64,000 nucleotides of DNA from Anolis carolinensis (lineage: Eukaryota). Below are positions 9,239 to 45,921 of the stretch, in pieces. A program made the translations under genes and the position numbers. Position 1 is the first letter of the stretch. Each line of letters starts with the position of its first letter. A model generated the notes under the pieces. That model was not told the origin of the DNA, did no database searches, and saw nothing but the letters and a program-made list of their open reading frames with translations. The stretch spans positions 327,431,402-327,495,401 of the forward strand of contig NC_085841.1 of the NCBI RefSeq assembly GCF_035594765.1. The letters are read 5' to 3'.

Positions 9239-9971
9239 GATATACATGAGTTTAATAAAAAAAAATCAGGCGTCTGGTTTGGCTCTCATGTCTTCATTTT
9301 CTAACCCAAAAATCACAGATATCTATACAGTATAAAGGAGGTAAACAAAGGTTGTGTGTGTTAAGTCACTGTAATATTATGCATATATATCCACCAAAAT
9401 ATTGACACGTAGCAGTGTAGTGTTTCGAAAAAGATATTTCAGGATTGAATTCTCACAAGTATGTGTTCATATAACGAAACAGTTTGAGTTTTAATTACTC
9501 TGCTGCTGAAAGCATATAATGCAGGGTTAAGCTTTTACTCATATTTTACTCATAAGTAACATCATATATGCATAGGTAACAAAATAGTTAGAGTTCAATT
9601 CACTATTTTGCGACTTGTTATAACAATATTATAATTGCACAGTATGTTGCAAGTAGTTGTCTTCTTTTTCTTTTTTGCATATGAGGAGAAGGTTGCTAAG
9701 TAGAAATGAAGGAAGTCTCTGATAAGAGAAATGTTTGTTGTGTCCTTAAAGGGATGCACGACAAAGAGTCCCGGGTTTTTTTCTTCTTTGTTTCGGGTCA
9801 AACCCTTCTTCAGGTTTTTTTTAAGGCCAATTAAGTTACAGAGACTCTATATTCTCCTTGAATTCTCATTCCTACATAAATATCAACAGACAAAAAACAA
9901 TAGATATGCATGAGTTTAATAAAAAAAAAATCAGGCGTCTGGTTTGGCTCTCATGTCTTCATTTTCTAACC
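9239..9971 (-). mobile_element. Direct-repeat-bounded element carrying a hammerhead ribozyme (Penelope/retrozyme-like)
   Basis: Direct repeats 9239-9306 and 9903-9971 (one substitution, one A indel) enclose about 600 bp containing a hammerhead core on the minus strand. Confidence 0.55.
9757..9815 (-). ncRNA. Hammerhead ribozyme core (type I topology, Penelope-like)
   Basis: Minus-strand RNA: AC-CUGAAGA-A-GGGU(UUG)ACCC-GAAA-CAAAGA(loop with CCCGGG)UCUUUG-UC^GU; all conserved core bases present; GUC cleavage triplet at 9762-9760. Confidence 0.7.
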
Positions 9972-21660: not shown

Positions 21661-23802
21661 ACATAACACAGCCCCTTATTTAACCTCAGGTTTAACGCAG
21701 TATATTGCCTACCTTCTTTTCTGAATCAGGTAAGTCATAACAAGAAGAGACCAAAAACCAAAGATGAAGCCAAAACACAGAGAAAGGTAAATCCAAAAAC
21801 CAAAGCCAAATCATAATGCAAAAACTGAGAAAGCTCGCTAAGTTCCTAATGATGTTATTGTGGTGGGTGAATGTTTAGGCTGGAAGCAAACAGGTAATCC
21901 GTGCAGAAGATGGGAATGGCTATTGCCACATATTACTACTAATAGAAGATTTCCAAGAGATACACTGCAGGTAGAGATAACATATCTGTGCATCAAAACG
22001 ACCACAAAAACACATGAGACCTGAGCACTTTGGGGATATGTCAGCATAAGGAGGCATTTTCCTTAGGCTGTACACATGGGCACATCAACTTTGACATTGC
22101 TATATTGTTGCAAACCCATTTCTTTCAGAATCCCACAAAGTTGTGCACCACAAGCAAAAAAGAGAAGAATCCCAAAACAAGTCTACTATTGGCGGCGTCC
22201 TTTAGACACAAATGCCCACAAGGACTGATGACAGGAGCAGTCCAGCCAAATCCTTACTCAGACATGTGTTTGTTATTATATTTCCATTGCTCCTTTTTCT
22301 TTCCAAGGACCCCAAGGAGGTTTACAAATACTGTTCTTCCTCCTCATTTTACCCTTTCAACAACTCTGTGTCGAAGTTAGGTTAAGAACCAAAGACTGGC
22401 CCAAAATCAGCTAGTGAGCTTCACGGCTGGTTGGGGACTTGAACCTGGATTACTTGAGTCCCTGCCCAAGACTTTGGCACAACACTGACTGCAAGGAAGG
22501 GGCCTCAACGGCACATTCTTCCCTGGACCTCTCAGTGTCTTGTAAAGGTCCTGCGTAAGATGAAACAAGTTGGATAGGAAAACGGTCTCACCTGTTAAGT
22601 TTCAGTTCAATATTATTCAGAGCATATCCTGTAGGAACACCTGCAGTCGTAAATAACGTTTCAGCTGCTACAAAAACAACTAGATAGTATAAACTGAACA
22701 AAAACATATCATACATGTGTTATTTCAGGCCCACATACTTCTACAAAAATGCTATAAGTGTCAAAGATTTTACTTGCAAGGTAAAATAAGCAAATTCTGG
22801 CAGTAACATAAACTGTTCAAATAATCACTCGGGGCTACGCTCTTGTTGCTCCAGTTGATACCACTGGAAGATTTTAACAAATGCCCAACTCTAAAAACGC
22901 ATGCCACTTCACAAATATGCACTGCATTAATCATACATATTGTTGGCATTCAAAACATTTCTAAAATATTCAGTCTTTTAGGTTATCTTACTTATGATCT
23001 GACATTGCTTTTGGAGTCATGCTCTCGTTATGTGAAACTTTTTTTAAAAAGTGATACATTTCAAAGTCACAAGAACATATCCTTCTAATAAAAAGGAACA
23101 TGTTCTCATTTTTAAAGTTAAGAATTAATATGTACAGTGAGAGTCTACAGCTGTAAAGAATTTTCTTTTCAAAAAACAGATTAAATTTATCCCAGAGCAC
23201 TATGAAATCAAAGTGTGTCAAGCATGATTCACAAAACAGTAAAGCTGGAGTAACCATACTTGGCCCCACTGGAATCAAGGGATACACAATATCCATAAAC
23301 TGTAGCTGGATCCAGTCCCTCAGCCCACTCCTATGCATGCTTGTTATATCATTGATGTCAATGTCATCACAACTAATACTGGGGGGGGGGGGGGGGAGAG
23401 AGAGAAATACTTTTAACATGTTTCCTGGTTTTGTCATGCAATTACATCTCCTTCAAAAAAAAATCCTGAATACTACACAAAACAATGATATTCACATTGG
23501 GTATCCACAAACAGGATGACAACCTTGCTAGGCAAAAAAAAAATACAATTAGGGAGAAATATACCAAACCCAAAACCAAAGCTATAATATAAAATAAAAT
23601 AATGGCAACTACATAAACAGCAGCAACATAAAATCTGTGGGGATGTGACTACATTTAATCTATCTTCTATATTGTTACTGCTTGTTTAAAAAAAGAAAAA
23701 AGATTGTGAAAAGGCTTAATATAATTTTCTCTCCCAGAAGCTCGACTACCTTGATAACAAAGAACATGGACTATTTTAGTTGCATCTCTTAAATTATAAA
23801 TG

Positions 23803-24125
23803 CAGTAGAGTCTCACTTATCCAAGCTAAAAGGGCCGGCAGAAGCTTGGATAAGCGAATATCTTGGATAATAAGGAGAGATTAAGGAAAAGCCTATTAAA
23901 CATCAAATTAGGTTATGATTTTAGAAATTAAGCACCAAAACATCATGTTTTACAACAAATTTGACAGAAAAAGCAGTTCAATACACAGTAATGTTATGTT
24001 GTAATTACTGTATTTATGAATTTAGCACCAAAATATCACGATATATTGAAAACATTGACTACAAAAATGGCTTGGATTATCCAGAGGCTTGGATAAGCAA
24101 GGCTTGGATAAGTGAGACTCTACTG
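23803..24125 (+). mobile_element. Tc1/mariner-pogo (Tigger-like) MITE, 323 bp
   Basis: TIR CAGTAGAGTCTCACTTATCCAAGC...TTGGATAAGTGAGACTCTACTG, TA on the right flank. Confidence 0.9.
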
Positions 24126-24844
24126 TACTGCAATTTTATGAATCATGTACAACTCATTATAACTTTATAACACAGTATAAGAGCTATATGTAAAATTAGC
24201 AGCTAATAAAGATACTAAATCCCATTTTAGCACGAAATCTGTTCATGTTTAAATCCTGTTTATTAGCAAAAGCTTGAAGTACAACCCACATAGTTCTATT
24301 AGGCAGCAGCAAAGCAGAATACAAACTGTGTTATTGATGAGCCAAAGACATTACAAACTGTTATGGATTCTAAAGATGACCTTTTAAAGAACTTGAATCC
24401 CTTCTATTAATTGTTGAGCCAGGTGCAGAGCTGGAGAATTCATAGCATTGGATATATTGTCTGTGAGTAAAAGCCTCTCTTCAAACAATACATATGTTTA
24501 AAACCTGTTTACATTAACACATAACGTTTGCAAACTGGAAAAAAAAATCTGAGCACAACTAGTGTCTGGCACTGATATCTTACCCAGAAAATCACATAAT
24601 TTCTAATTCTTATCCCTACATGAAGAAGCTTAATTTGACAGGATTGTTTGTGCCTATTTTATCATGTTTTGGGGACAAATGTAGCCAATGAACCTCATGT
24701 GGTCCCTCAGAACTCTTTATGTGCTTCCCTTGGTTGAAAAATGATCCCAAGTGCCCCCAAATACTTTCTAAAGAAAGTGAGGAGATAATTGTCTGTGTAT
24801 TTGCACCAAACAGGACATTTTAGGCCAGGATTACACAGATAGGT

Positions 24845-24905: not shown

Positions 24906-25284
24906 TGAATTGATTCCAATGTGACTTCCTAAAATTGTATGGGGTGGTGAAAAATTCAATTTAAGAAGCAGTGTCCTGGAGTAGAAGGATATTTGAGGCC
25001 ACGATTTTGCAATGCTTGTGAGGAGGTGGAGGTCTCTTATAGAGTCATCATAAGTAAATGTCAACTTGATTGCAACTAACATCAAAGCAATCCTCCATGG
25101 TTTTGGGAGGGAGGCAAAGCATTCTGCCCAACTCCTGCCATTTTGCCACCCAGTAAGTTCATTTTCAGACATGGAATTATTTTATTTTTAATGATTAAAG
25201 TGGTCACACCTCAACCTGTATTAAGATCTCAGGGTGGCTTGTAACATCCCTATAGTGGGAAAAATGTGGGATAAAAATTAAGTA

Positions 25285-25607
25285 CAGTAGAGTCTCACTT
25301 ATCCAACACTCACTTATCCAACGTTCTGGATTATCCAACACATTTTTGTAGTCAGTGTTTTCAAAACACCGTGATATTTTGGTGCTAAATTCGTAAATAC
25401 AGTAATTACTACATAGCATTAATGTGTAATGAACTACTTTTTCTGTCAAATTTGTTGTATAACATGATGTTTTGGTGCTTAATTTGTAAAATCATAACCT
25501 ATTTTGATGTTTAATAGGCGTTTTCTTAATCTCTCCTTATTATCCAACATATTCGCTTATCCAACGTTCTGCCGGCCCGTTTATGTTGGATAAGTGAGAC
25601 TCTACTG
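25285..25607 (-). mobile_element. Tc1/mariner-pogo MITE, same family as 23803, opposite orientation
   Basis: Same TIRs, TA target-site duplication on both sides, 323 bp. Confidence 0.92.
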
Positions 25608-27539
25608 TAAGTAAAATAGAATAAAACAGGCTAAGCAGGCTAAAAACAGTAAAAACATTAAGGAGTTAGTTCTGCCCAGGTCAGGTGTGGGCAATTCATG
25701 GCCCTCCAGATGTGGCTGAGCATGCATTCTCAACAGAGGGTACACTCACTAGGACTGATGGGATCTGTAGAACATCAGACCTGGAGGAGTTCCCTATGAA
25801 TTCTCCTATCGTAGGTGATCGCATTGAATGCCAAAACTTAGTTGGCTGTTCATTAAGATATATTGCTAAAAATATAATCCAGAGAGAGTGAAATGTTCAC
25901 AATCAACCCTGTGATGCCTATTAGGCTGGCTTAAGAGTGATCAGGTACCAGGTGATTACATTGAGTCTTTTAATTCTGTCAGAACAAGATAAGGAAATAG
26001 TTCCTTTGTCAGGTGAGGACCAAAATTTAGGGTTTAAAACTCCCTCAGAGTTGGGTCCTGATCTTATCCTGGAAATAAGTCAAGAGTAAGCCAATTTTCT
26101 GTTTCTAGGTCCCTACAGGGATTGCTTGGTGTTCTAAAAGACCCCACCACAAAAAACATCAAAACAAGCATTAGTTACTGTGTAGATTGAAATGCAGATG
26201 TGGGTGGCCTGAAGGTGCCACGAACCTTCAAAATAATCACATGGGGCCCCAAGACTGCACTCTACCCATCCTCATATAATCTTATGAAAACAGTGGTTTG
26301 AGTTAAAGTGCAGAGCCAAAAAATCAATGTCTCCCAAGTGATTTTTTTAAAGCTCTGTAGTGCAGAGCGATGTAAATAGGAGGAAGCCTGTCTTGCCTCT
26401 CTGCTGCCTCTAAGTATTCATATCAATTTCAGTAAGGGGGAAAGCAGTCTTGCCCCTCACTACCACAAAACCAGAAAACAAATAGGCTCAATGCAGCATT
26501 TTCCGGTCAGTTTGACAATTTTAAATTCACATGATACATGTTATGTGCTATTCCAAACCTCTGGACTCACCACTGACATATAGTATCTTTCCATTAATTT
26601 CTTGAAAAGGATGAATACTAATGTACGAGTACCTACTGTACTGTATTATGTACTAATACTATTACAATATATTCTAATTTAAGCTAAGAATATAGCCTGG
26701 TCTCAACATTAATAATGACTTTTATGACAACTGTAGCATAATGGCTAAAATTACTATATAATAACTACTATATTATATTGGTTATAACCACCAGTTACGT
26801 AGTTTTTGCCAACCACAATATTTATTTCATTTTTAATAGAACTGACTACTATAGGCAAAAGGACATTTCAATTTTAATTTTTTAATTTTATTATGTAAAT
26901 CTCAGGACAAGTTTCCAGCATGACAATGACTATTAACTGTTTTGTTAATAGTAGCTGCCCTGTAAATTGAACTATATTAAAGTCAGCTAAGTTTTGAATT
27001 AACTTTGAAATGTGCCAATGAAAAAGGGGCAACGTAACTACATGTTAAAGCTATACTAATTGAATTAATTTCTCCAGATTGAAGATATTAATTAATTAAT
27101 TAAATCATGTTTTTAAACATAAGTTATTTGGCTTATATCCAAACTTTAATTTACTTAGTTCTTTGAAAATTATTTTTCTTTTTTCCCTTTTCCCTTCCTT
27201 CTTTCCTTTCCCACCTTTAGGATTCGGCAACTAAATTGTTTAGGTCATAATCAGAAGGTAAGAATTCTCTTTCCAACCATATAGTCATCTTGCATTCTCA
27301 CCAAAAATGTCCTTGGTCCCAGGAAACTGAATTTTCTGGGAATTTTACTAGAATCTACATGGGAATCAATCAGGAATAAAGAAGAAAGAAACAGAAAGCA
27401 AGAGAAGGCTTATCGATGAGGAGGATGAAAAATGGGGTTTTAACATATGCATGTAGCTGTTTCCTTCTTTCCAAAGCTTGAACTAGGAATTTTGGAGAAA
27501 ATTAAAATAATTGGAAAAAAAATTCCCCATTACTAAGGA

Positions 27540-33085: not shown

Positions 33086-33879
33086 CAGGGCCGGCCCCAC
33101 TATTGAGGCACCTGACGCCGCCGCCTCGGGCGCAGGCCCAGGGGGGCGCCGTCAGGCTGGGCGGGAGGCGGGGCACCGCCCTGACGGTGCCCCGCCTCCC
33201 GCCCAGTGCGCCCTGGCCCGTCTGGCCTGCTAGAAAAGGCCAGACGGGCGAGCGGGAGCAATCGCGGCCTGGAGGAACCTCCGCTGAACTCTGGCCTGCT
33301 AGAAATGGCCAGACGGGCGAGCGGGGGTAGTGTGGGAGGCGGGGCCAGCTCTGGCCCCGCCCCCCCGCCCAGCGTGCCCTGGCCCCGCCTCCCACGTTGC
33401 GTGGGAGGCAGGGCCAAGGCACGCTGGGCGGGGGGGGGAGCGGCGTCAGAGCTGGCCCCGCCTCCCACGCTACCCCTGCTCGCCCGTCTGGCCTTTTCTA
33501 GCAGGCCAGAGTTCAGCGGAGGTCCCTCCAGGCCGCAATCGCGGCCTGGAGGAACCTCCGCTGAACTCTGGCCTGCTAGAAATGGCCAGACGGGCGAGCG
33601 GGGGTAGCGTGGGAGGCGGGGCCAGCTCTGGCCCCGCCCCCCCGCCCAGCGTGCCCTGGCCCCGCCTCCCACGCTGCGTGGGAGGCGGGGCCAGGGCACG
33701 CTGGGCGGGGGGGGCGGGGCCAGAGCTGGCCCCGCCCCCCTCACTATTCGCCCTGGCCCCGCCTCCCACGCAGCGTGGGAGGCGGGGCCAGGGCACGCTG
33801 GGCGGGGCCAGGGCGCCGGTGGCGGGGGCGCTTTTCAGCACCCCCGCTTCACATCAAAAAATATCTCCGGCCGGCCCTG
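33086..33879. mobile_element. Non-autonomous hAT transposon, GC-rich, internally palindromic (794 bp)
   Basis: TIR CAGGGCCGGCC...GGCCGGCCCTG and perfect 8-bp TSD CATGGGAT at 33078-33085 and 33880-33887. Confidence 0.93.
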
Positions 33880-37949: not shown

Positions 37950-38280
37950 TGACACAGACAAGAGAACCACTTTAGCCTGGCTTCCAATCAGGAGCAGGAG
38001 GAGGAAGAGGATGGGCGCCAGGGTCTGACTCACCCGCCGAGCCGCCGGCCAGGATCTGGTGGGACGCCTCGTGCCAAAAGCCGCGCGGGGTTCCTGCCAT
38101 GATGATCCACTCGCGCGGGGAAGAGAGACGCCGGGAGAGAAGCAAGGGGAGGAGGAGCAGGAGGAGGAAGAGCCCCTTTAAAGGCGGGGGGGGGGGGGGC
38201 GACTCCTTCCAGTGGGCGAGGGAGGGAGGGCAGGCGGGGCGGGAAGAGGCGGGCAAAACCCAGTAGGAGTGCATCGGCAC
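37950..38280 (-). promoter_or_regulatory. CpG-island promoter and 5' UTR of SLC25A21
   Basis: High GC and CpG density, GC boxes (GGGGCGGG at about 38236), TTTAAA TATA-like element at about 38177-38182 upstream of the ATG. Confidence 0.75.
38034..38100 (-). CDS. SLC25A21: SLC25A21 (mitochondrial 2-oxodicarboxylate carrier) coding exon 1
   Basis: ATG at 38100 (atcATGG) encodes MAGTPRGFWHEASHQILAGGSA-G, matching the N-terminus of human ODC (..EASRQIVAGGSAG), followed by a canonical phase-1 donor G|GTGAGT. I found no exon 2 (LVEICLMHPLDVVKTR) in the window, so intron 1 exceeds 38 kb. Confidence 0.9.
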
Positions 38281-44180: not shown

Positions 44181-44753
44181 GTTCCTTCTTTAAGCATTCA
44201 ATACCTGGGGCAATCTATCTCTGTGATTTGCTCTTCTCTGTAGAATGAATGCAGTTTGATACCAGGTAAGGGGACATGGCTCAATGCTGTGGAATCATGG
44301 CAGATGTAGAGCCCCCTCTGGTGCTCTTGACCAAACTACAACTCCCAGGGCTCCTTAGCACTGACCCAGAGCAGTTAAAAGTAGTGCCAAACTGCATTAA
44401 TTCCACAGTGTAAACTGCACCCTGAATGTTTGGGGAGTGTGGAGGGGCATGGGGATAATAGAGTGCTCCCTCTTGCATTGCTTTCAATGTACTAGTGCAG
44501 GCATGTGCCAACTTGGGCCCTCCAGGTGTTTTGGACTTCAACTCCCACCATTCCTCACAGCCTCAAGCCCTTTCCTTTTACCTCTCAGCCGCTTAAGCCA
44601 TTGCAAAACATTTCCAGGTGGTAGGCATTAACTCTCATCAGGTTTAGAGAAGAGGATCAAAGACAAGGCCTCTTGAAAACAGGAAAGGCTATAATCCTAT
44701 GCACACAAACATGGAAGTAAACTATTAAATTTAGTGGGGCAAATTTCCAAGTA

Positions 44754-45921
44754 CAGTAGAGTCTCACTTATCCAAGCTAAACAGGCTGGCAGAACCTTGG
44801 ATAAGTGAATATCTTGGATAATAAGGAGGGATTAAGGAAAAGCCTATTAAACATCAAATTAGGCTATGATTTTACAAATTAAGCACCAAAACATCATGTT
44901 ATACAACAAATTTGACAGAAAAGGTACAGTAGTTCAATATGCAGTAATGTTATGTTGTAATTACTGTATTTACTTCACTTCACTTTATTTCTTAGTCACT
45001 CTCTCCCAGCGTCTTACAATTTAAAATATCATTCCACAATATAAAAACATTCAACATAAAAAACATTCAACAGTGACTATTTGGCAAATTTGATCTGATT
45101 TACTTAAATGCACAACCAAACAGCCAAGTCTTGAGCGCTTTTCCAAAAGGTCCCAACTCCGACATTGCTCTAACATATGGAGGCAATGAGTTCCACAGAA
45201 TTGGAGCATAGGTCGAAAAGGCTCTATGCCTTGTAGCTTCCAGGTCTACCTCCCTTGGGCCCGGTACATATAGGAGATTTTCCTGGGAGGATCGAGGTGA
45301 CCACTGATGAAAAAAAGGAATGAGGCGGTCCCTAAGATATAATGGTCCTTGGCCATTTCGAGCTTTAAATGTCAGGATCAGTATCGTGTAAGAGATTCGA
45401 TGTTCTGTTGGTAGCCAATGCAGTTGTTTCAGAATTGGTGTAATATGGGATGATCCCGCTAGCAGCCTGGCCACCGCATTTTGGACCATTCAGATCTTCT
45501 GGGTTTTTGTCTTCGGAAGGCCGGCATATAAGGCGTTACAATAATCCAACCTAGTGGTGACTGTTGCATGGATTACCGTTGCCAATGCTTCTGTCGAAAG
45601 GTAGGATGCCAATTTCCTTGCCTGGCAAAGATGAAAAAAGGCCTGCTTACTTATGGCAGTGATCTTTGTCAGCGATGAGTCCAACACAACCCCAAGGCTT
45701 TTAACAGTAGCAGACGGAACTAGAACTTCCCCATCAAAATCAGGCAGTGACTGGGTTAACTCTGGTGGCTGGCCGGGCCAGAGTATCTCAGTTTTTGCAG
45801 GATTCACTTTTACGAATTTAGGACCAAAATATCATGATATATTGAAATCATTGACTGCAAAAATGCATTGGATAATCCATAACCTTGGATAAGCAAGTCT
45901 TGGATAAGTGAGACTCTACTG
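44754..45921 (+). mobile_element. Tc1/mariner-pogo MITE split by an L2 insertion
   Basis: Left half 44754-44973 and right half 45809-45921 rejoin to the 323-bp family of 23803/25285; TA TSD. Confidence 0.9.
44974..45808 (-). mobile_element. L2 LINE 3' fragment nested in the MITE
   Basis: ORFs 45490-45807 (NPAKTEIL, KSLGVVLDSSL, TRLDYCNALYAGLP) and 45100-45489; tail AATAAA-GTGAAGTGAA. Confidence 0.92.

Follow-up and report, generated by a model that had tools for sequence, protein, structure and literature searches.

The hammerhead motif on the minus strand of the window (the whole 64,000-nucleotide [nt] stretch of Anolis carolinensis DNA that we analyzed) is the built-in ribozyme of a Penelope-like element (PLE), not a host ribozyme. 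Our best explanation, which we hold with good though not full confidence, is a likely recent and polymorphic 602-bp insertion of a Neptune-type pseudo-long terminal repeat (pLTR), whose motif is predicted to cleave slowly and probably only as a dimer or with the help of a protein. We observed membership in a family with reverse transcriptase (RT) and GIY-YIG reading frames, a target-site duplication, an empty site in some sequencing runs, covariation of the helices, and reverse transcription through the uncut cleavage site.

The hammerhead core and its host intron

Positions 9813 to 9760 of the minus strand form a type I hammerhead core with a GUC triplet, and inspection of the letters confirmed each part named in the initial annotation (core letters, stem II, GAAA, helix III, CCCGGG, GUC, and stem Ia). 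The 5′ strand of helix Ia (AC), the C3-A9 box CUGAAGA (9813-9807), and an inserted A10 at 9806 together occupy 9806 to 9815. They are followed by helix II, GGGU/ACCC with a UUG loop (9795 to 9805; strands 9805-9802 and 9798-9795), and by G12-A13-A14 with the helix III 5′ strand ACAAAGA (9785 to 9794; GAAA at 9794-9791). Loop III (9768 to 9784) reads AGAAAAAAACCCGGGAC, is 17 nt long, and carries the self-complementary CCCGGG at 9775-9770; the helix III 3′ strand UCUUUGU, C17, and the helix Ia 3′ strand GU complete the motif (9758 to 9767). Helix III (9791-9785/9767-9761) comprises 7 bp, the A15.1-U16.1 pair included, C17 falls on 9760, and the predicted cut lies between 9760 and 9759. The sequence features of a type I hammerhead are present (CUGANGA and GAAA boxes, A15.1-U16.1, and a NUH triplet, here GUC), helices II and III are closed and helix I is open, and changes on both sides of a pair occur in all three helices among rows selected by pattern.

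Two helices differ somewhat from their first description. Stem I had been given only 2 bp, which is correct for the proximal AC/GU, but predicted folds add a distal helix beyond an internal loop, in which CCUUAAA (9820 to 9826) pairs with UUUAAGG (9744 to 9750); it measures 7 bp in the window copy and 10 bp in copy L014. With a 7-bp helix III closed by a 17-nt loop, the motif does not suit the term "minimal". Stem II reads GGGU/ACCC in the window copy as described, but its fourth pair hangs on U9802, a position that is C in 15 of the other 19 fetched copies, within an intact GGG/CCC stem, and almost only C in contigs from four public runs. For the family, stem II is therefore 3 bp long, the majority form being GGG/CCC with a 5-nt loop.

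The motif is the sole match to the hammerhead descriptor in the window. First-order Markov resamplings of the window matched in 8 of 2517 cases when stems II/III/I had at least 4/6/2 bp and in 82 of 2517 with looser stems of 3/4/2 bp, and single-strand folding of the motif region gave no stability signal (z of about −0.1 to −1 against shuffles). A covariance-model scan, suggested at the outset, matched no Rfam hammerhead model to the motif: the search of the window returned 0 hits at the gathering threshold and no hammerhead at an E value of ≤10. A genome-wide search returned RF00163 only at C1:390654-390706 (L141; 73 candidates scored). This locus lies above the Rfam RF00163 cutoff and has a 6-bp helix I; we take it to resemble the amniote intronic hammerhead type, and the amniote HH9 and HH10 hammerheads have a 6-bp helix I. 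That the window motif is not a chance occurrence follows from the family evidence given below, namely dispersed copies, pattern matches, and covariation.

The coding part of SLC25A21 exon 1 lies at 38034 to 38100 on the minus strand. Its translation is the N-terminus of P0002, the mitochondrial 2-oxodicarboxylate carrier, whose first 22 residues are encoded at 38100-38035 with a GT donor directly after. An exon 245 kb to the left of the window matches the A. carolinensis mitochondrial 2-oxodicarboxylate carrier at 100% identity, and the next SLC25A21 exon lies at C1:327311127-327311183, approximately 158 kb further down the minus strand. Since exon 1 and the next exon are both on the minus strand and flank the motif, the motif is in the sense orientation, as first proposed, 28 kb into the ~158-kb intron 1 and with ~130 kb of intron beyond it. 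Elsewhere in the window, positions 33100-33830 hold GC-rich nested direct and inverted repeats with units of 97 to 277 nt, probably a foldback or nonautonomous DNA element, and two 347-nt inverted repeats 1.1 kb apart (23793-24139 and 25271-25617; related copy at 44742-44926) are likely a DNA transposon.

The carrier element and its family

The motif lies in a block, from 9909 to about 9307, that is shared with dispersed copies elsewhere in the genome. The stump (9307 to 9909, minus strand; 602 bp) is common to dozens of such copies at 82 to 95% identity, and the 171-nt region around the motif gave 44 genome matches at 86 to 100% (40 candidates scored). A 63-bp target-site duplication on the 5′ side (9909 to 9971, minus strand) is identical, except for one T in a T run, to 62 bp on the 3′ side (9245 to 9306, minus strand), as seen by sequence comparison and in contigs without the element. 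The duplications of 62 to 63 bp here and of 68 bp at L032, against 14 to 19 bp in about 10 of 32 loci, represent unusually long staggered cuts. The 3′ ends of subfamily-A copies cluster at reference positions 2801-2803 and 2832-2837, approximately 32 to 35 nt apart, which marks an optional pLTR tail of ~30 to 35 nt (9307 to 9338 in the window copy, minus strand); tails at the pLTR 3′ end of PLEs have been described (PMC11167929, PMC8557442). A ~100-nt pLTR segment 3′ of the ribozyme (reference 2563-2663) is tandemly duplicated in many copies, and at L009 (1875-3145) it has expanded into a 12-unit array.

The window copy itself contains no open reading frame (ORF). Longer copies (L021, L032, and L023) reach further upstream, where RT and GIY-YIG ORFs lie on the same strand; in L021 and L032 the frames match PF00078 (RVT_1) and PF01541 (GIY-YIG) and are broken in both. 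The single ORF of endonuclease-containing (EN+) PLEs, an RT with a C-terminal GIY-YIG domain, is thus present in the family. The linker that joins RT to EN has the form CX2-5CxxC (CGHCDVC in L021, L023, and L053; CGHCQCC in L140) and is absent from the Poseidon-type ORF of L004. According to PMC8557442, this linker marks the Neptune and Nematis clades, and by this character the element would be placed in Neptune (or Nematis); Table 1 of PMC7561263 reports Neptune elements in the green anole. The near-full element L140 consists of an inverted pLTR, the ORF, and a pLTR, and each end carries the same motif; its ORF begins ~440 nt downstream of the motif, and no ORF starts inside the motif. Inverted 5′ pieces occur in many of the 58 distinct subfamily-A loci. 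The family accordingly has the hallmarks of EN+ PLEs: a pLTR with a hammerhead, inverted 5′ pieces, an optional 30- to 40-bp tail, and a 5′-untranslated region (UTR) intron.

The shared block, the duplication, the longer copies, and L140 together identify the window copy as a 5′-truncated retrocopy that retains most of one 3′ pLTR of a subfamily-A element. The initial annotation had pointed to both PLEs and animal retrozymes. Kinship with PLEs is borne out by the RT/GIY-YIG family. The copy is the solo stump of an autonomous element; we rejected a non-LTR retrozyme because the copy is solo, the site holds no tandem array, and the family codes for RT and EN.

We examined the insertion site in the assembled contigs of 4 public runs (X1, X2, X4, and X12) out of 24 listed. 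In X1 and X2, one contig each connects the two flanks, skips 664 to 665 nt, and has single-copy depth; X4 yielded an exact contig across the 5′ junction of the element; and the X12 contig breaks at the duplication and is ambiguous. Read indirectly, from the contigs of these four runs, the SLC25A21 insertion is likely a presence/absence polymorphism, and it is probably recent. For Neptune insertions in the anole, PMC7561263 describes them as largely polymorphic in its Table 1 and as mostly fixed in its main text.

The pattern CCTGAAGAAGG-N6-14-GAAACAARG matched the genome 250 times, always in the pLTR position, against 0 matches for the reversed control, and a looser core pattern with CCGG matched 190 times against 2 for the control. 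By eye, the fetched matches sort into about eight subfamilies; the RT frames of subfamily A share 67% identity with those of B and C. Among 19 aligned representatives, 88.6% of cells pair in the named structure, compared with 39 to 52% in slid-register controls, and changes on both sides occur in 5 of 12 pairs and touch all three helices; the covariation score was reached by 0 of 500 shuffles. The covariation in stems II and III that the annotation had proposed as a check was found, and the C3-A9 box is invariant in 19 of 19 rows, which were chosen by a pattern that contains this core. Because some positions of helices II and III are also set by the pattern and the rows are related rather than independent, the covariation supports selection but does not prove it. 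From the 19 representatives RNAalifold recovered helix III but otherwise just a spurious hairpin in the core, which is why we counted the named structure directly.

Across the family, helix III spans 5 to 10 bp (11 representatives), loop III 8 to 20 nt with an off-center CCCGGG, and helix II 2 to 6 bp. When 30 loci were collected without requiring the palindrome, 18 carried CCCGGG, 1 carried CCGG, 6 a CpG-decay form, and 5 another sequence; CCGG was thus present in 19 of 30 loci, against a background of 39 of 2461 26-nt windows. Helix II has 3 bp in most of subfamily A and 2 bp in two subfamilies. In the abundant subfamily B (e.g., L046 at 7005, plus strand: GGGAU-UUUG-AUCCA), G10.1 stands opposite A11.1. 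The first pair of helix II (10.1-11.1) is usually conserved in hammerheads, and this mismatch opens the helix in an abundant subfamily. Judged from these sequences, the mismatch and the 2-bp helices would argue for weak catalytic constraint. Both core boxes, A15.1-U16.1, and the NUH triplet persist from one subfamily to the next. Of 20 matches that the motif produced in metagenomes, 0 had a helix II of at least 3 bp together with a helix III of at least 4 bp and a helix I.

Splicing, cleavage, and predicted folding

The stump also contains the 3′ end of the spliceosomal intron of the pLTR, a pyrimidine tract followed by AG at 9873-9872 (9872 to 9909, minus strand). In the unspliced copy L021 (2536-2346, minus strand), a start at GCTCACT is followed by an exon of 68 nt and its GT donor; two AG acceptors come next, and 9873-9872 in the window corresponds to the second. 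In 12 genomic copies, exon 1 continues precisely at 9871. Matches to exon 1 numbered 23 in the 58 subfamily-A loci. Twelve of the 23 begin with the pLTR 5′ end and use acceptor 2, and the remaining spliced copies comprise one joined to acceptor 1 (by inspection), one with a further deletion, and one that is truncated. The intron is still present in all six copies that run on into the ORF, and also in L031 (truncated) and L091 (at the locus edge, apparently on the ORF side). Tabulated as unspliced versus spliced by ORF linkage (6/0 versus 2/12), the data give a Fisher P value of 0.0007, which is descriptive only. Spliced copies that start at the pLTR 5′ end number 14 if L027 and L040 are counted, and the intron is retained in 6 of 6 ORF-linked copies. 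This suggests that a PLE RNA retains or loses the intron according to whether it starts in that pLTR. The spliced copies come from processed RNA, which must hence have been intact across the motif or at least up to it, and most of them run on through the ribozyme. The stump brings this working 3′ splice site in the sense orientation into SLC25A21 intron 1, where the AG at 9873-9872 could serve as a cryptic acceptor.

With a 21-mer located just 3′ of the cleavage site, we collected 34 copies. Twenty-eight span the whole ribozyme, 8 of which were flagged as spliced, and a single copy begins at the cut site, where it shows 3 nt of microhomology. No pile-up of 5′ ends was found at the cut site among the 34 copies, the one start being about what chance would give (~0.24 expected from 6 truncations in a 76-nt stretch). 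With 28 of 34 copies extending across the site, the template of reverse transcription was usually uncut or rejoined RNA, although copies from cut RNA could be underrecovered if their 5′-OH end integrates poorly.

The window monomer is predicted to misfold through pairing between loop III and the 3′ strand of helix II. For the window copy, the hammerhead fold lies 6.7 kcal/mol above the monomer ensemble, and for other representatives it lies 5 to 13 kcal/mol above it; in the canonical hammerhead L141 of the same genome, used as a control, it is the minimum free energy (MFE) structure (unconstrained MFE only). Two window RNAs are predicted to pair (ensemble of −46.9 versus 2 × −18.9 kcal/mol), and the dimer MFE contains an intermolecular helix III with strands swapped around CCCGGG; the double-hammerhead dimer fold lies 9.6 kcal/mol above this MFE. 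ViennaRNA computes folds without core or tertiary energy, so the misfolding of the monomer may be overstated. From the predicted folds and the uncut copies, cleavage in vivo looks slow, and we agree with the annotation that the ribozyme may be slow or dependent on dimerization.

In the RNA of the element itself, the motif would be part of the 5′ UTR, with an internal start and a short intron upstream of it. The monomer would prefer an inactive fold, with loop III paired back on helix II; two RNAs could then join at CCCGGG and exchange their helix III strands, and so restore helix III. The ribozyme would thus be conditional, switched on by loop III dimerization or by the protein of the element. 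A solo intronic copy would be transcribed passively with the pre-mRNA, would have no partner in cis, and would probably rarely cut before splicing. Tentatively, and with more doubt than conviction, we propose that anole Neptune elements combine a stable helix III with a large CCCGGG loop into a kissing-loop dimer switch that is off in single transcripts and fires when two RNAs or tandem pLTRs meet. If so, the off-state would let uncut, spliced RNA be copied. That the intron is spliced out of copies started in the pLTR and kept in read-through copies would explain the long-puzzling intron retention of PLEs. A dimer switch in this loop would also be a new regulated ribozyme design in vertebrates.

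Cutting of the nascent intron, as the annotation had envisaged, is possible but finds little backing in a solo copy that is absent from some contigs, is predicted to misfold, and belongs to a family mostly copied from uncut RNA. Efficient cutting of SLC25A21 RNA is unlikely on the modeled behavior, because the solo copy has no partner in cis. The same retrotransposon origin would nevertheless accommodate an efficient monomeric ribozyme that severs intron 1 in carriers and possibly lowers the mRNA level: the core is intact, the window copy has a 7-bp helix III, a 4-bp helix II, and a distal helix I, the ~130 kb of intron past the motif gives long exposure, and PMC4209133 gives a kobs of 0.16 per min at 1 mM Mg for monomeric cleavage by fungal PLE hammerheads whose helix III is large. 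The predicted misfolding, the 28 of 34 copies that span the site uncut, and a helix Ia of just 2 bp make this improbable. So does a whole ribozyme copy inserted in the sense orientation between two kelch-domain exons (L002; G000:C14:14385706-14385875, minus strand), which indicates that sense-strand ribozyme insertions are tolerated. Somewhat less probable again is that the hammerhead has decayed catalytically and persists because it serves as a signal, either structural or bound by protein, or as an internal-promoter DNA element. The erosion of helix II in several subfamilies while helix III and CCGG persist would fit such decay, as would the reports that cleavage is unneeded for insertion of the anole Poseidon element in vitro (PMC11167929) and that Naiad elements spread without canonical hammerheads (PMC8557442). 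Against it, subfamilies with RTs 67% identical share the core boxes, A15.1-U16.1, and the NUH triplet, and helices Ia and II show compensatory changes.

The sense orientation and the long first intron would also suit a domesticated intronic ribozyme of the HH9/HH10 type, conserved for SLC25A21 mRNA biogenesis. We consider this very improbable, as the motif belongs to a multicopy element that is young and flanked by nearly identical target duplications, the site is empty in the contigs of 2 of 4 runs, and no Rfam hammerhead hit was obtained, whereas the canonical lizard ribozyme at C1:390654 was found. A chance match to a short consensus could appeal to the 82 resampled windows that satisfy the loose descriptor and to folding no better than that of shuffles, but it is ruled out with near certainty by 250 versus 0 pattern matches, all in the pLTR position and with covariation, and by the 0 of 20 metagenome matches with comparable helices.

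The slow, conditional pLTR hammerhead therefore remains our preferred reading, and it probably matters little to the host gene. Even if trivial for SLC25A21, the polymorphism allows a comparison of alleles with and without a sense-strand ribozyme in a long intron. About eight subfamilies that keep the long helix III and the CCCGGG loop while helix II drifts form a natural test set, and the genomic copies preserve the state, spliced or not and cut or not, in which the RNA was copied.

Comparison with known hammerheads

PLE hammerheads, palindromic loops III, and activation by dimerization were already known (PMC4209133; PMC3088659, legend to Fig. S8); for minimal PLE motifs, dimer activation is reported in PMC4209133 and in PMC6765202, citing Lunse 2016. 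The inferred slow or conditional cleavage agrees with the low activity that PMC4209133 gives for animal PLE hammerheads and with the protein dependence that PMC11167929 gives for the anole Poseidon ribozyme. A large helix III is reported in PMC4209133 only for fungal and protist PLE hammerheads, and a literature search found no description of a long helix III with a large loop and an off-center 6-nt palindrome in an animal PLE, a combination that Lunse et al. 2016 or supplements may cover. As far as these sources go, what is new here is this shape, which we regard as modestly novel.

The metazoan minimal hammerheads of PLEs described by Cervera and de la Peña in 2014 (PMC4209133) share with the window motif the type I form, the location in the pLTR, CUGANGA with an extra base before G10.1, a short helix Ia, a palindrome at helix or loop III, and an occurrence mostly as solo truncated copies; in the Drosophila virilis PLE, the intron adjoins the motif as it does here. 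In the 56-motif alignment of that work (Fig. S3, machine-read), which lists no anole, helix III is one pair or a palindrome of at most 4 nt and helix II is mostly long, whereas the anole family has a helix III of 5 to 10 bp and a short helix II. Minimal hammerheads have no helix III or one of 1 to 2 bp with a 2- to 4-nt palindromic loop, and the window motif lies outside these bounds. Fungal and protist PLE hammerheads are likewise type I, with a stable helix III and a place in the pLTR, but in PMC4209133 they belong to endonuclease-less telomeric PLEs and act as monomers, and a palindromic loop is not among the features reported there.

Poseidon_Ac (PAc) of the green anole, described by Frangieh et al. 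in 2024 (PMC11167929), shares the host group, the pLTR location, the two-end tail, and the lack of any sign of frequent cleavage in vivo. As described there, it belongs to another PLE clade, has no CxxC linker, and starts its ORF inside stem II, which is not the case here. Minimal cores of the form CUGAGGA-U...GAAACGUC with an ATG at helix II occur at L048 (2328, plus strand), L044 (2713, minus strand), L052 (3223, plus strand), and L058 (9636, plus strand); as these cores fit the description of Poseidon_Ac, both architectures coexist in the anole genome.

The amniote HH9 and HH10 ribozymes (RECK and C10orf118; PMC10761166, PMC3088659) are likewise of type I and lie on the sense strand of introns, but they are single copy and conserved. 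The window motif is multicopy and apparently polymorphic, not fixed, its site being empty in the contigs of 2 of 4 runs. Animal non-LTR retrozymes (PMC7229834; bioRxiv 10.64898/2026.07.22.740005) also carry type I hammerheads and are described as derived from or related to PLE pLTRs; they form tandem noncoding units with a hammerhead each, whereas the window holds the solo stump of a coding element.
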